A stretch of 20,788 bases of DNA from Pseudobdellovibrionaceae bacterium. Its GTDB lineage: Bacteria > Bdellovibrionota > Bdellovibrionia > Bdellovibrionales > Bdellovibrionaceae. Every line of letters starts with the position of its first letter. Position 1 is the stretch's first letter. The notes under the pieces are model-generated. The model was not told the DNA's origin and ran no database searches. It worked only from the letters and a program-made list of their open reading frames with translations. The position numbers were made by a program, and so were the translations under genes. This document shows, piece by piece, positions 4,807-19,197 of this stretch. The stretch covers positions 1-20,788 of the forward strand of contig JBGGMM010000124.1 of the NCBI GenBank assembly GCA_041288045.1. The letters are read 5' to 3'.

Positions 4807-5136
4807 ATGTTAGAAGGTCTGGTTGGCAACCAAACAGCTGAAAAAGTTCTTCTTTATATCGTTAATTACGGTGAAGGCCACACCTCTGGCATTGCCCAGA
4901 CATTTGATATTCCCAAATCTCAGGTCCGAAAGCAGCTCATTCGTCTTGAAAATGGTGGAATACTGATCGGCAGAAATGTCGGTAATCTCAGGATGTTCCA
5001 AATCAATCCCAGATGTTCCTATAAAAAGGAACTTGAAAGCCTTTTTGAAAAAGTTCTTTCGTTAGTCTCTGACGCAGAAAAAGAAAAGTTCTATCGACAA
5101 AGACGAAGACCGCGTCGAACAGGGAAAGATTTGTGA
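4807..5136 (+). CDS. Winged helix-turn-helix protein, putative antitoxin or regulator
   Basis: HTH (TSGIAQTFDIPKSQVRKQLIRLENGG) followed by a wing (GRNVGNLRMFQIN). Basic tail RQRRRPRRTGK. GTGA overlap with the next gene. Confidence 0.8.
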   Translation: MLEGLVGNQTAEKVLLYIVNYGEGHTSGIAQTFDIPKSQVRKQLIRLENGGILIGRNVGNLRMFQINPRCSYKKELESLFEKVLSLVSDAEKEKFYRQRRRPRRTGKDL

Positions 5137-5666
5137 AAAAAATAAATCGTAAAATGTCCATTCGGGATTTCGCAGTGGCAGTGGCAGCGATTCTTAACGA
5201 AGAAAACATTGATGTGATTTTGACAGGCGGAGCCGTCGTTTCCATTTATACTGAAGGCAAATACGTTTCTAAAGATGCTGATTTTCTAAGTGCAACTGAC
5301 CAACAATCTATAAAACAAGCTATGTTGAAAGCGGGTTTCAAAAATTTAGGCAAAGATTTTTATCACGACAGCATTGATTTCACAGTTGAATTCCCAGGCT
5401 CAGAGCTAGTCATTGGCGATGAACCCATGAAGCCAGAGGGTGAAATCAAAGAAGGCCAGTTTACACTTAAGCTTCTGTCTCCGACTCAATGTGTGATGGA
5501 TCGATTGGCCGCTTTTTATCATTGGAAGGATCGACAAAGTCTTGAGCAGGCCGTTATGGTTGCGCAAAAGCATCCAGTCAAGTTACTGAGGATTAAAAAA
5601 TGGTCTGAAAGAGAAGGCATGAAAGACCGTTATGAAATCTTTCTCCAGCAGGTAAAAAAGGACTAA
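5133..5666 (+). CDS. Predicted nucleotidyltransferase-fold protein (type IV TA / AbiEii-like toxin candidate)
   Basis: LTGGAVVSIY...SKDADF matches the GG...S-x-D-x-D signature of Pol-beta-like NTase toxins. Translationally coupled to the wHTH gene. Confidence 0.7.
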   Translation: MKKINRKMSIRDFAVAVAAILNEENIDVILTGGAVVSIYTEGKYVSKDADFLSATDQQSIKQAMLKAGFKNLGKDFYHDSIDFTVEFPGSELVIGDEPMKPEGEIKEGQFTLKLLSPTQCVMDRLAAFYHWKDRQSLEQAVMVAQKHPVKLLRIKKWSEREGMKDRYEIFLQQVKKD

Positions 5667-14085: not shown

Positions 14086-14405
14086 ATGGAATTGATTGTC
14101 CTAAAACAAGCTCGAAAAGAGCTCCAAGATCCCCTAAAGACGTTATACAAGATGTTTTTGCTCTTTTTGACGATTTGATGGCTGGCAAGCTGTTAAGTAT
14201 GCCAATTTCACGTCCGCTTCCTTCAATTGCGAAGGGCTTGCATGAGTTGAGGCTTTCAGGAAGGGCTGGAGAGTATCGAGTTTTTTATGTGATAAAAGTG
14301 GGATCAGCAATTTACGTCTTGCATGCAACTGCCAAGAAGTCGCAGAAGACGGATAAGCGGACAACGGAGCTAATTAAAACAAGATTGAGGTGCGTCGATT
14401 TATGA
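14086..14405 (+). pseudogene. RelE/HigB-like (phage gp49-like) toxin with a frameshift near 14128-14133
   Basis: ATG 14086 reads MELIVLKQARKELQD and stops at TGA 14176. The -1 frame continues PKDVIQDVFALFDDLMAGKLLSMPISRPL...GLHELRL...EYRVFY...YVLHATAKKSQKT, which is RelE/gp49-like. Confidence 0.75.
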
Positions 14406-14707
14406 AATCAAAAGTTAGAGACAAAGTCGTAAAATATAAAACTGCTGAAGCTTTCGGAAAAGATTTGGGCTTAAGCTCAATTGAAATTGAGCTCATTCGA
14501 CAAAAGAAAAAAATTGTTGAAAAGCTTCGCAAAGCTCGCGAGAACCAGGGGCTTTCTCAGGCTGAGCTTGCTAAAATGGTGTCAAGTCATCAACCTGCTA
14601 TTGCTCGTATGGAATCAGGCCAAATCAGTGAAGTCAGCCTTGATTTTTTGTGTAAGGTCGCTCTTGTCCTTGAAGTATCGGTCACAATCCGAGCCAAGGC
14701 CGCTTAG
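14402..14707 (+). CDS. XRE-family HTH antitoxin (HigA-like)
   Basis: LRKARENQGLSQAELAKMVSSHQPAIARMESG HTH_3 motif. ATGA overlap with the toxin stop supports a start at 14402. Toxin-first gene order. Confidence 0.88.
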   Translation: MKSKVRDKVVKYKTAEAFGKDLGLSSIEIELIRQKKKIVEKLRKARENQGLSQAELAKMVSSHQPAIARMESGQISEVSLDFLCKVALVLEVSVTIRAKAA

Positions 14708-14717
14708 ATATGCTCGC

Positions 14718-15425
14718 CTAAGCCGTTTTTTTGCTCACACTTTCGATGGTGAACGAATATCCCTGGCCATAAACAGAAACCAGGCAGCCTTTCATAGCGC
14801 CGAGCTTTTTTCTGAGGTGGGCGATGTGGGTGTTAATGCCGTGGATATCGATGGCGGTGCCGTGGCCCTCCCAAGCGGCCATTTCCAGCTCGCGCCGGGA
14901 CAGCACAGTGCCGATGTTTTTAACCAGAACTAAAAAGAGACGAAATTCAGTTGGAGTCAGACCCAGATCTTGTTTCTGCTCGTTTTGGACTAAATAACAT
15001 TTTTGAAATTCGAGATCGAAGAAAAAACCACTGCTCTCATAGGCCCTCACCGTGGTTGTGGACAGGCGAAGAAGATAGCGATCGACTCGGGCTCTGAGTT
15101 CGGTCACGTGAAAAGGCTTGGTGATGTAATCATCTGCACCACAGGTAAAGCCAAAGACCTTTTCTGCAGTTTCGGCTTTGGCAGTCAGCAGAATTCGCGG
15201 GATCTTTTGGTGGAGCAAATTTTGGCTCAACTTTTTGCAAAAATCAAAGCCATTGCCGTCGGGCAAAGTGACGTCGATCAGAACGAGCTGAAAGCCATGT
15301 TCCTTGAGAGCGCTTTCAGCCTCGGCCAGCGAGCGGACGTGGTGAATCAAATAGAGATCGAGACTGTTTTTGACCAGCAATCCGGTGTCTTCACAGTCAT
15401 CGATCAATAAGATCTTGTGCATCAT
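14718..15425 (-). CDS. OmpR/PhoB-family response regulator
   Basis: Receiver (LLIDD, IDVTLPD, LTA, DDYITKPF) plus wHTH output (LTPTEFRLF, HIAHLRKKL, VYGQGYSF). Confidence 0.95.
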   Translation of the reverse strand: MMHKILLIDDCEDTGLLVKNSLDLYLIHHVRSLAEAESALKEHGFQLVLIDVTLPDGNGFDFCKKLSQNLLHQKIPRILLTAKAETAEKVFGFTCGADDYITKPFHVTELRARVDRYLLRLSTTTVRAYESSGFFFDLEFQKCYLVQNEQKQDLGLTPTEFRLFLVLVKNIGTVLSRRELEMAAWEGHGTAIDIHGINTHIAHLRKKLGAMKGCLVSVYGQGYSFTIESVSKKTA

Positions 15426-15601: not shown

Positions 15602-16051
15602 ATGAGAACGGATTCGCCACATTCACCTCAGGCCCAAAAGGTCACCAATATACTGATCATCGATGATGATGTGGATTCGGCGCTGATGGTCGAGTCAGTG
15701 TTCTCGCATTTAGGCTGTGAAACGACTTGTTCTTTAGGTTGCAAAGAAGCGCGAGAGAAAATCTGTTCTTTGCAGGCGGATCTCATCATTATGGATTGGA
15801 TGCTGGATGGCCAGACAGAAGCCAGCAGTGTGGTTCGTCAATGTGCTGAGACTTTCGCCAAATTTGGCAGGGGTCTAGGGCATGGTTCCTGGCCGAAAGC
15901 AAAAATCATTACTTTCTCAAGCTTAGCAGCCAGTGAAATTGAGAGCCTGCGAAATCCTTATTTTGAACATTTGGATCATTGGCAAAAACCAATCACTCAG
16001 CGGGAACTCTTGCATCGAGTATTGGTGTTACTTGGAAAGATGGGTTGTTGA
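15602..16051 (+). CDS. Stand-alone response regulator receiver protein
   Basis: ILIIDDD, phospho-Asp in IMDW, Ser in ITFSS, conserved KP. GGAGG RBS. Confidence 0.9.
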   Translation: MRTDSPHSPQAQKVTNILIIDDDVDSALMVESVFSHLGCETTCSLGCKEAREKICSLQADLIIMDWMLDGQTEASSVVRQCAETFAKFGRGLGHGSWPKAKIITFSSLAASEIESLRNPYFEHLDHWQKPITQRELLHRVLVLLGKMGC

Positions 16052-16066: not shown

Positions 16067-16867
16067 ATGTGGTCACTATGGCGTGAACAAATTGAATCGA
16101 TGATGCCAATTTTTGATGATTTGATTCCCGAGCACAGCCTGGACGGGCAAGATCGAGAGGAGCTCGAACAAATTTGTCAGACCTTGATGCCGGCACTGGT
16201 GGACAAACTGCCATCGGATAGCAGCTGCAAAATTTCTTTTGATCGAGATGAGAGCGGGCAGTGGAGCTTAGATATCACCTGCCGATTTTCAGGCGGCCCA
16301 ATGACCGCAAGAGCAAAGGGAGCGACTCCGCTCGAAGCTTTTCAGCTCACGCGAAACTTGATCGAAGCTCAGCTGGACGAGTGGCACACTCAGCGTTTTT
16401 CTGCCGAACCGGAGCCCCTGTTGCCGGTGGGCTATGACCCAATCCTGACCTTGCCCAGGCAAAAGCGCGTTCTCATCGTGGATGACGATGTCGACTCGGC
16501 TCTGGCTACCCAAGGGGCGATGGAGCTTTTGGGCTTCGCCACAGAAATTGCCACTCGGCATGAAGATCTGCACCGAAAAATTATTTCCAGCGATTTGGAT
16601 CTGATTGTTTTGGATTGGAAACTCAATGGTGACGTGACTGCGGATGCAGTGGTGGAAAGAGCGGCAAGACTGATCGGCGCTTTTTCGGATTTGCGGCAAA
16701 AGTATCACGAGAAACGTCCGCAAGTGATCACTTATTCGGCCCTTCAAGAGAAGCAAATTGATTTTCCTCTCTTGGGCGCCGAATACTTTGATCATCGCGA
16801 TCATTGGCAAAAGCCAATGCCCTATTCTGAAGTGATCAAGCGGGCTTCGGAGTACTTGCCGGTATGA
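16067..16867 (+). CDS. Response regulator with N-terminal HPF/RaiA-like domain and C-terminal receiver
   Basis: C-terminal receiver (VLIVDDD, VLDW, ITYS, QKP). Residues ~28-111 align by eye with E. coli HPF. AAGGAGG RBS. The receiver call is firm; the HPF-like call is tentative. Confidence 0.8.
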   Translation: MWSLWREQIESMMPIFDDLIPEHSLDGQDREELEQICQTLMPALVDKLPSDSSCKISFDRDESGQWSLDITCRFSGGPMTARAKGATPLEAFQLTRNLIEAQLDEWHTQRFSAEPEPLLPVGYDPILTLPRQKRVLIVDDDVDSALATQGAMELLGFATEIATRHEDLHRKIISSDLDLIVLDWKLNGDVTADAVVERAARLIGAFSDLRQKYHEKRPQVITYSALQEKQIDFPLLGAEYFDHRDHWQKPMPYSEVIKRASEYLPV

Positions 16868-17175
16868 AAAAATTAACTTTGGATTCAGTTCCTCCAGAAC
16901 TTTTACACCTGATCCCGGGCTTTCTCGAAAGACGAGAGAAAGATGTGGCCGATCTTCGATTCTTTCTCGCGCTTGGAGACTATGTCGCGATCAAAGATAT
17001 TGGCCATCGCTTGAAAGGTACCGGGACGGGCTATGGTTTTTCAATGATCAGTGAGCTTGGAAAGGATTTAGAGGCAGCTGCCGCTTTGGAAGACTTTCTG
17101 CAGGTGTCGACCTGCATCGAGCAACTGAAGGTCCTGACTGGCAGTTTAAAATATTGTCTGACTTCTGCAGCTTAA
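16864..17175 (+). CDS. Hpt (histidine phosphotransfer) protein
   Basis: GHRLKGTGTGYGF (HxxKG) motif in a small helical protein. ATGA overlap with the upstream gene. Confidence 0.92.
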   Translation: MKKLTLDSVPPELLHLIPGFLERREKDVADLRFFLALGDYVAIKDIGHRLKGTGTGYGFSMISELGKDLEAAAALEDFLQVSTCIEQLKVLTGSLKYCLTSAA

Positions 17176-17181
17176 GCACAG

Positions 17182-19197
17182 ATGGGACGTTTTATGAAGC
17201 GCTTGCCAAAAAAGATCAACAGAGGTTGGCAAAATCTTTCGGTTTCGCACAAACTGTATGCCGTGGTCGGCATTATGGCAATTTTGATTGCCACTGAACT
17301 GTTCACTCTTCTTTTTGCGATGGACACGCTCTCGGCCGTGCGGGCCTTTGTGGGCGGTGAAGGGATTTGGTCGAAAGCGCAAAAGGATGCGGTGTTGGAG
17401 ATTCAAAACTATGTGCGCACTGGGGATGTGCAGCACTACCGTTCAGCCCAAAAACACTTTCTCATTCCTTTGGGCGATCATTTGGCCCGGGTGGAAATGC
17501 AAAAACCAGATATGGATTTAGAAAAAGTAAAAGAAGGCTTTTTGGCGGGAAAAATCCATCCCCATGATATTGAACCCATGGTGAACCTGATGCGACGCTT
17601 TCACCAGATCAACTTTATTGATGAGGCCATTAGCATTTGGGGCAAGGGCGATCATCTCATTTATCAATTGATTGGTGTCACCGAAGAACTGCATCGGGAA
17701 ATGTCCCGTGAGAAACCAAGCTCACAACAAATCCAAATCTTGTTGCAACAGATTTTTGCTCTGAATGATCAACTGACCGAAATTGAAAATCAGTTCTCGT
17801 CGACCCTGGGCGCGGCCTCACGCTGGCTCGAAAATCTCTTGATGATGATTCTGGTCATCGCTGTGGCAACAGTCGAGACTACCGGCTTATTTCTGACCAT
17901 TGCCTTCAGTCGCAGTCTGACCCATGTCCTGAATGAGTTGCACAGGTTTGCAATTGGTGTCGGTGTCGGGGACTTTTCTAAAACGGTTCCGGTGCGCTCA
18001 ACGGATGAATTGGGAAAATTAGCCCAAGCTTTGAATAAAATGGCAGAAAGCCTGAAAGAAACCACCAGTGAAAGGCAGGTCGCTGATCGAGCGAATCAAA
18101 TCAAAAGTCTTTTTCTAGCAAATATGAGTCACGAAATTCGAACACCGCTCAATGCCATTTTGGGATTTGTAGATCTTCTGAAAGACTCTTCGTTAAAGGG
18201 CCCCCAGCGCCGAACCTATTTAGAAATTATTGAGCGCACTGGCTTTAGTCTTGCGACGATCATCAACGACATCTTAGATATTTCAAAAGTTGAAGCTGGA
18301 AAATTAGAAATCGAAAAGTCCATTTGCTCATTGCCCCAGATCTTGCGGGATTTAGAATCTCTGCTCAATCTGCGCTGTGAAGAAAAAGGCATTGATTTGA
18401 TCTTTGAGCAAAAGGATCTTCCCAAAGCCATCGTGACCGACCCCACGAGATTCAAGCAAATTTTACTGAACGTCATCGGCAACGCCATTAAATTTACCAG
18501 CAAGGGTGGGGTCCGAGTTCAATTTGAGGTTCGGGCTCAGCAATTGGTTTGCACTGTCAAAGACACGGGAATCGGAATCTCGCCCGAAAACATGGAAAAA
18601 TTATTTCGTCCCTTTTCGCAAGTGGACCTCTCGATCCGAAAGGAATTTGGCGGCACGGGGCTTGGTTTGACTCTGTCGAAACGCTTGGCCCAACTTCTCA
18701 ACGGCGACGTCATTCTCAGCGACAGTGTGATCGGCCAAGGCAGCACTTTTGTGGTCTCCATCGGACTGGATGATCTGCAAACAGCCCATCTGCCCATATC
18801 CAGACAAGAACGTTTTGATCCGGTTTCGGCTCCCTCCTTAAAGGGACGAAAGATTCTGGTGGTAGAGGATTCCTTGGACAATCAGCTATTGGTTCGTCAG
18901 GTCCTGACCAACGAAGGAATGTTGGTCGAGACAGTCAATCACGGCCAAGAGGCCATCGAGACAGTCGCGCAAAAAAAGTATGATCTCATTTTGATGGATA
19001 TGCAGATGCCGATTATGGACGGCTATACCGCCACGATCCAATTGCGTCAGATGGGATGCTGCACTCCGATCATTGCTTTAACAGCCCATGCAATGAAAGA
19101 AGACCTCGATAAATGCCTCAGCGTCGGCTGCAACGCCTACCTCAGCAAGCCCTTCCGCCGCGACGGCCTCATGGAAGTCATCAGCCAGCACTGTTAG
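17182..19197 (+). CDS. Hybrid sensor histidine kinase (TM-periplasmic sensor-TM-HAMP-HisKA-HATPase-REC)
   Basis: Two hydrophobic segments, HAMP (DELGKLAQALNKM), H box FLANMSHEIRTPLN, N box NVIGNAIKFT, DTGIG, GGTGLGL, receiver VVED...MDMQMP...SKP. Confidence 0.96.
   Translation: MGRFMKRLPKKINRGWQNLSVSHKLYAVVGIMAILIATELFTLLFAMDTLSAVRAFVGGEGIWSKAQKDAVLEIQNYVRTGDVQHYRSAQKHFLIPLGDHLARVEMQKPDMDLEKVKEGFLAGKIHPHDIEPMVNLMRRFHQINFIDEAISIWGKGDHLIYQLIGVTEELHREMSREKPSSQQIQILLQQIFALNDQLTEIENQFSSTLGAASRWLENLLMMILVIAVATVETTGLFLTIAFSRSLTHVLNELHRFAIGVGVGDFSKTVPVRSTDELGKLAQALNKMAESLKETTSERQVADRANQIKSLFLANMSHEIRTPLNAILGFVDLLKDSSLKGPQRRTYLEIIERTGFSLATIINDILDISKVEAGKLEIEKSICSLPQILRDLESLLNLRCEEKGIDLIFEQKDLPKAIVTDPTRFKQILLNVIGNAIKFTSKGGVRVQFEVRAQQLVCTVKDTGIGISPENMEKLFRPFSQVDLSIRKEFGGTGLGLTLSKRLAQLLNGDVILSDSVIGQGSTFVVSIGLDDLQTAHLPISRQERFDPVSAPSLKGRKILVVEDSLDNQLLVRQVLTNEGMLVETVNHGQEAIETVAQKKYDLILMDMQMPIMDGYTATIQLRQMGCCTPIIALTAHAMKEDLDKCLSVGCNAYLSKPFRRDGLMEVISQHC

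Follow-up and report, generated by a model that had tools for sequence, protein, structure and literature searches.

HPF/RaiA proteins bind 30S/70S ribosomes, where they block the tRNA sites. Fusions that join an HPF domain to a second module have been described in archaea and in bacteria. Cryo-EM shows the archaeal CBS-HPF proteins HibA/AHA bound at the decoding site, and their partner module binds adenylates, according to the available portions of the two reports (PMC13324472 and PMC13728122). In the bacterial fusions HPFcold and SigE-HPF, HPF is combined with a stress or signaling domain, and the fusion occurs alongside canonical HPF, as stated in the available text of PMC13392368 and bioRxiv 10.1101/2025.11.04.686544. 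The available part of PMC13392368 adds that HPFcold retains basic residues and binds ribosomes. The main text of the bioRxiv survey, in the portion available, names Csp, SigE, and CBS fusions and mentions no receiver, response regulator, or Bdellovibrio; its supplements may list further fusions. The four supplementary files of PMC13324472, tables presented as pictures aside, contain none of the latter three terms either. A literature search conducted mostly outside subscription papers returned no HPF-receiver fusion.

Here, we analyzed a 20,788-nucleotide stretch of DNA from a Pseudobdellovibrionaceae bacterium (the window; GenBank assembly GCA_041288045.1, contig JBGGMM010000124.1) that encodes a receiver protein with an N-terminal domain of predicted HPF fold. 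This domain has the same predicted fold as HPF/RaiA (YfiA)/PSRP1 (PF02482; PDB structures 8uu7_w, 3tqm, 1imu, 5ngm_Av, and 4y4o) but lacks the first strand, the basic patches, Y71, and D75, and it is fused to a receiver. The protein resembles HibA/AHA in joining an HPF domain to a regulatory module; here, however, a phospho-receiver serves as that module, and the contacts to rRNA have been lost. The locus also resembles multistep His-Asp phosphorelays, in that a hybrid kinase, a stand-alone Hpt, and several receivers are encoded together with their catalytic residues intact. Unlike in those systems, an HPF-fold domain is attached to one receiver, and two of the receivers come from an atypical subfamily in which helix 4 is remodeled. 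We regard the combination of HPF fold and receiver as an undescribed domain pairing within an under-recognized, order-wide family.

Gene and domain architecture

The fusion gene (positions 16067 to 16867, forward strand) is an open reading frame of 266 amino acids with a GGAGG site upstream. Residues 27 to 112 (16145 to 16402, forward) form the HPF/RaiA-fold domain, a helix, three strands, and a helix, without the first HPF strand. The proline-rich linker described in an earlier note on this DNA is present at residues 113 to 131 (16403 to 16459, forward); it is modeled with low confidence, and its length is very variable among homologs. The rest of the protein (16460 to 16864, forward) is an atypical receiver with a predicted phosphoacceptor, D183, encoded at 16613 to 16615. 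The fusion of the two domains is real and recurs across the Bdellovibrionales.

The receiver holds the acidic pair D139/D140, the phosphoacceptor D183, S224, and K249, and positions D140, D141, D183, S224, and K249 are invariant in all 34 aligned fusions. The earlier note had claimed a receiver with all canonical residues. The residues are indeed there, but the Pfam Response_reg match is partial (model positions 1 to 54 only, 20.1 bits against a cutoff of 30.2), and the full-length model has five strands and four regular helices, with helix 4 broken into short turns. Helix 3 is extended, helix 4 is remodeled, and His246 occupies the aromatic-switch position. The extended helix 3 and broken helix 4 are common to the fusion and the single receiver encoded upstream (E = 8e-21). 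Both domains exceed pLDDT 90 in the full-length model; the linker is at about 53 and the pTM is 0.55, and therefore no fixed contact between the domains is predicted. In one genus without the fusion, a single-domain atypical receiver was matched in each of 18 genomes out of 18 (L138, 4316 to 4738; L139, 4400 to 4822), and in three loci of that genus, no HPF-like neighbor lies beside it.

Gene neighborhood

The gene order in the window is that of a relay cluster: a divergent OmpR-type regulator, a single receiver, the fusion, Hpt, and a hybrid kinase. The OmpR-family response regulator (14718 to 15425) lies on the reverse strand. On the forward strand are the single-domain receiver (15602 to 16051), a paralog of the fusion's receiver, and, past the fusion, a stand-alone Hpt phosphotransfer protein with H48 (16864 to 17175), whose start overlaps the fusion stop codon. 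The hybrid sensor kinase (17182 to 19197, forward) comprises an N-terminal sensor region, HAMP, HisKA, HATPase, and a receiver. Its sensor region (17182 to 17900) is without a Pfam match, yet it is conserved in homologous clusters.

This neighborhood is shared by many of the homologs. Hpt lies within 1.5 kb of 33 of 37 fusions, directly downstream in 25, and H48 is invariant in 17 of 17 Hpt proteins. An OmpR-type regulator is found near 23 of the 37 fusions, a single receiver near 18, and a kinase near 15, in counts for which many loci span only 1.5 kb per side. CsbD and YflT genes are found near some fusions, and Hsp20 genes near stand-alone members of the family.

Sigma-54 control of the window cluster was considered and rejected, as sigma-54 sites in the window are not enriched (39 matches versus 38.3 expected) and no good site lies upstream of the cluster. 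Of 31 fusions, three have near-consensus sites, and these belong to a single subfamily (L049 to L051); the background is 1.3%. The subfamily of L049 to L051 and L137 adjoins sigma-54 activator genes. A scan for promoters and terminators gave results at chance level. Elsewhere in the window, a small regulator-like gene overlaps a gene for a 177-amino-acid protein (4807 to 5666), which by eye looks like a nucleotidyltransferase pair. The HTH_3 gene at 14390 to 14707 may encode an antitoxin.

Predicted fold of the N-terminal domain

An AlphaFold2 model of the domain, computed from a 145-row alignment, contains a helix at residues 27 to 47, strands at 53 to 60, 66 to 74, and 77 to 85, and a helix at 88 to 112 (pLDDT 86.7, pTM 0.75). 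This is the helix-beta-beta-beta-helix order that had been read from the sequence by eye. The model leans on stand-alone relatives, because these are in its alignment. HPF strand 1 is not formed in the domain model or the full-length model, where that stretch is of low confidence, and several members of the clade described below begin at helix 1.

A Foldseek search with the domain model returned HPF/RaiA proteins for all six hits at E ≤ 0.001 (TM by query, 0.48 to 0.66), and ranks 1 to 19 were all HPF, RaiA/YfiA, PSRP1, or mycobacterial homologs. The check by AlphaFold and Foldseek that the earlier note had proposed thus found an S30AE-type fold. An ESM Atlas model of the domain reached TM values of 0.71 to 0.76 to clusters, with PF02482 in 6 of the 10 listed; like the Foldseek comparison, this one is based on predicted models. 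The Atlas search with the whole protein returned receiver proteins only. A double-stranded RNA-binding domain (dsRBD) was rejected as the best match: the first such Foldseek hit is at rank 20 (TM 0.47), with others at ranks 34 and 38, and no dsRBD Pfam hit was obtained. HicB was considered as a candidate and dropped after Pfam and family, sequence, and Foldseek searches gave no match to it. The assignment of residues 27 to 112 to the HPF/RaiA fold, as the earlier note had called it, is supported by the structure search with predicted models together with two-step sequence homology.

Sequence ancestry of the domain

Between strand 3 and helix 2, the domain aligns without gaps to E. coli HPF (reference from NC_000913.3, MG1655) over 36 residues, with 10 identities and a BLOSUM score of 29. 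The alignment given in the earlier note proved correct against this reference sequence. None of 2,000 shuffles of the domain attained this score against the fixed E. coli segment, a lenient test because that segment was chosen beforehand. Pairwise BLAST between the domain and E. coli HPF gave only E = 0.006. The PF02482 search suggested in the earlier note returned no direct hit for the fusion protein, either at the curated cutoff or up to an E value of 10. The N-terminal part is without a match in NCBIfam, and none was found among PDB sequences.

Word-based homolog searches yielded only the protein itself, nothing, or one other fusion. A search of 61 related genomes gave a match in 13, and the family so found has as its hallmarks a proline that follows helix 1 and a W-x3-R motif that closes helix 2, a signature that is new relative to canonical HPF. 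The profile of this HPF-like family matches 217 of 301 Bdellovibrionales genomes, some canonical HPFs being among the matches counted. In a set of 1.84 billion representatives, it matches 392 clusters at E ≤ 1e-10; relatives fall in the Bdellovibrionales. The same profile finds HPF/YfiA in the PDB at E = 1e-5. PF02482 was matched at E ≤ 0.01 by 34 of 145 family members, and no other family was matched more than once. A fusion from another subfamily (L081) reaches PF02482 at E = 0.0012, under the cutoff, and a stand-alone member in genome G042 passes it.

As a non-circular test of ancestry, we used a profile of 116 stand-alone members only, these being the short proteins among the 150 profile matches listed. 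It finds the window domain at E = 7e-10 among 26083 genome open reading frames and recovers 22 of 33 canonical HPF rows at E < 1e-3. A profile of canonical HPFs alone misses the window domain (E = 79), and a profile of the window protein's own clade gave no HPF hit in the PDB and a 10% probability against E. coli HPF. The sequence link is therefore a two-step one, as a profile confined to the clade falls short of HPF. At the level of sequence profiles, common ancestry with HPF/RaiA is detectable, via the stand-alone HPF-like proteins of the Bdellovibrionales.

Distribution and evolution of the fusion

A survey for homologs of the same architecture, which the earlier note had recommended, identified at least 37 distinct fusions among the loci fetched, in at least six families of the Bdellovibrionales. 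The figure of 37 is a lower bound, as it counts best matches only and the divergent fusions L144 and L145 fall under the threshold. Of 301 sampled genomes of the phylum, only those of the Bdellovibrionales gave matches that cover both domains. An N-terminal hydrophobic segment is found in 14 of the 37 fusions (L067 to L079, L087, L090, and L127 listed), and from their sequences, these are likely membrane-anchored HPF-fold receivers.

The window protein sits in a 20-member clade with a long stem (SH-aLRT 99) in a quick tree of 95 rows, among them 50 of the 116 stand-alone members and 14 of the 31 canonical HPFs. Clade-invariant residues of the domain are P49, W66, A81, A91, W106, and R110. When the fused state is mapped onto the receiver tree, it switches seven times, with at least three of the switches forced by strong branches; fusion or loss therefore occurred more than once. 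Genome G015 (L137) has an unfused arrangement of Hpt, receiver, and stand-alone domain, and a clade relative, L086, has a membrane segment and a receiver and has lost the domain. For domain pairs above 55% identity, dN is 0.005 to 0.25 and dS is greater than 1 or saturated in 29 of 29, substitution patterns indicating that the HPF-fold domain is under purifying selection and is not decaying.

Other HPF genes in the same genomes

The window genome contains two PF02482 genes and one stand-alone HPF-like paralog (G000:C234; L017, 1489 to 1860, forward strand). Its best PF02482 gene (L001, 1489 to 1872) keeps two of the four basic sites considered below and is without the helix-1 basic pair. Separate PF02482 hits are present in 29 of 30 fusion genomes. 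The exception, G041 (100% complete), has no PF02482 hit and encodes a very basic stand-alone member (L149, 3674 to 4033) as well as a fusion (L057).

In the stand-alone members, helix 2 is basic and ends in W-[KR]-x2-R-F; among the matches listed, position 89 is basic in 110 of 116 and position 92 in 115 of 116. Judged by sequence, it is these stand-alone proteins, more than the fusion, that would be candidates for genuine hibernation factors. In L006, L007, and L009, HPF-like genes from different subfamilies stand in tandem downstream of Hsp20 genes, and one protein, P0046, unites two HPF-like domains.

Ribosome-binding surface

In Staphylococcus aureus HPF, the quadruple change of K27, R30, K84, and R87 abolishes ribosome binding, and each double change leaves it, according to the available part of the report (PMC4889938). 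These residues correspond to E. coli K23, K26, K80, and R83, an equivalence taken from residue spacing and not from an alignment of the S. aureus protein. In the window protein, the equivalent residues are L40, A43, L98, and A101, none of them basic. K87 of E. coli HPF is replaced by E105, and Y71 and D75 are lost. The domain is acidic, as had been claimed: its net charge is -5 over residues 27 to 112 and -10 over the stretch aligned to HPF 1 to 95. The only basic residues in helices 1 and 2 are R30, K47, R96, and R110, and therefore no register shift restores the basic patches.

The loss extends beyond the window protein. At least three of the four basic sites are kept in 28 of 31 canonical-type Bdellovibrionales HPFs (a set without L002, which the E. 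coli profile did not recover), and at most one in 19 of 21 type-A fusions. Among the 20 rows of the clade (L077 falls outside it and was omitted), 14 have an acidic residue at helix-1 position 23, 17 at position 26, and 16 at position 29, whereas a basic residue is found there in 24, 26, and 27 of the 31 canonical HPFs, respectively. At position 87, 13 of 20 clade members have an acidic residue and 31 of 31 canonical proteins a basic one. The window protein itself has only D46 acidic among the three helix-1 positions, as L40 and A43 are neutral. Helix 2 of the clade does have basic residues, although at shifted positions (78 in 18 of 20, 83 in 10, 86 in 12, and 92 in all 20), and on sequence grounds these could still bind RNA. 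Other fusion subfamilies retain K23 and K26 in five and seven of eight members.

Possible roles of the fusion

We somewhat favor a role as the receiver protein of a relay cluster, in which the HPF-fold domain is a candidate protein-docking module and not a translation switch. Repurposing of the domain for docking is likely because the basic residues that grip the ribosome are missing, and a fold turned to protein binding would fit better than ribosome silencing. In favor of docking we count the charge reversal, the absence of all four sites, purifying selection, the Hpt neighbors, and the separate PF02482 genes. Against it, we count that only D46 is acidic here, that the clade has shifted basic residues on helix 2, and that other subfamilies keep K23/K26. 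Also counted against it are the ribosome binding of the S. aureus double mutants and of the HibA/AHA and HPFcold fusions, whose complexes with the ribosome have been solved, the retention of only two of four sites in L001, and the loss of the domain in L086.

In the relay that the gene context suggests, the hybrid kinase would pass phosphate to Hpt H48, and from there it would go to three receivers, namely those of the OmpR-family regulator, the single-receiver protein, and the fusion (at D183). The fusion may form a side branch and thereby adjust the OmpR-type output, its flexibly tethered acidic domain presumably holding it to a protein partner. In the 14 of 37 homologs that have one, the N-terminal membrane segment would similarly position the fusion.

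Several other readings keep a link to the ribosome or to RNA. The relay may instead be wired to the ribosome, with a rebuilt surface (the shifted helix-2 arginines and the W-x3-R end) docking to idle ribosomes under the gate of D183, and with membrane-anchored versions in part of the order; we consider this unlikely. Also doubtful, the domain could be an input that weakly samples idle ribosomes or an associated factor and reports translational state via receiver phosphorylation. Response regulators usually have the receiver first and the output domain second, and the reverse order here would suit an input. The sharing of W106 and R110 with stand-alone members whose helix 2 is basic, together with the stress-gene neighbors, points the same way. 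The same loss of rRNA contacts counts against an input domain, as do a variable, low-confidence linker and the lack of a predicted domain contact.

The earlier note had proposed phosphorylation-switched ribosome silencing, in which phosphorylation of D183 would either free the HPF-fold domain or bring it to the decoding channel of the 30S subunit, and translation would stop. This proposal draws on the fold itself, on the ribosome binding described for CBS and cold-shock HPF fusions in the available parts of those reports, on the shifted helix-2 basic residues, on the CsbD, YflT, and Hsp20 neighbors, and on the complete genome G041, with a fusion and no PF02482 hit. It is not supported and now ranks as improbable. 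None of the four binding sites is basic, the domain is net acidic, and helix-1 charge is reversed across the clade, whereas HPFcold, a binder, keeps its basic residues (as the available text of PMC13392368 has it). Further, receiver-domain contact is not predicted, 14 of 37 homologs have the N-terminal membrane segment, and separate HPF genes are retained.

Less probable again is another kind of RNA-binding output, a dsRBD topology without strand 1 that would bind mRNA or small RNA via the shifted basic stripe of helix 2. The helix-three strands-helix topology, the dsRBD matches from Foldseek (ranks 20, 34, and 38) and from a sequence search (E = 0.69), and the conservation of R96 and R110 would agree with it, but the TM by query is 0.38 to 0.47 for dsRBDs against 0.60 to 0.66 for the best HPFs. 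The domain also has a net negative charge, and its helix 2 contains just two basic residues. Least probable of all is a functionless folded spacer left when a neighboring HPF-like gene was fused by read-through: fused and unfused forms both exist, the fused label changes at least three times on the receiver tree, L086 lost the domain, and most clade invariants could be core-packing residues, but purifying selection in 29 of 29 close pairs, an exposed helix whose reversed charge is conserved, and a well-supported clade with a long stem (in the quick tree) argue against a passenger.

Implications

The receiver fusion is an addition to the few HPF fusions described so far, and it leads to an HPF-like family that spans the order and that Pfam mostly fails to detect. 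If the domain is a docking module, a ribosome-binding fold would have been made into a signaling module by charge reversal, and the family would be a warning against calling HPF fusions hibernation factors by fold alone. If instead the relay is wired to the ribosome, the protein would be a phosphorylation-gated hibernation factor or a ribosome sensor. Predatory-type bacteria alternate between growth and nongrowing phases, and such a protein would give them a direct two-component switch on translation.
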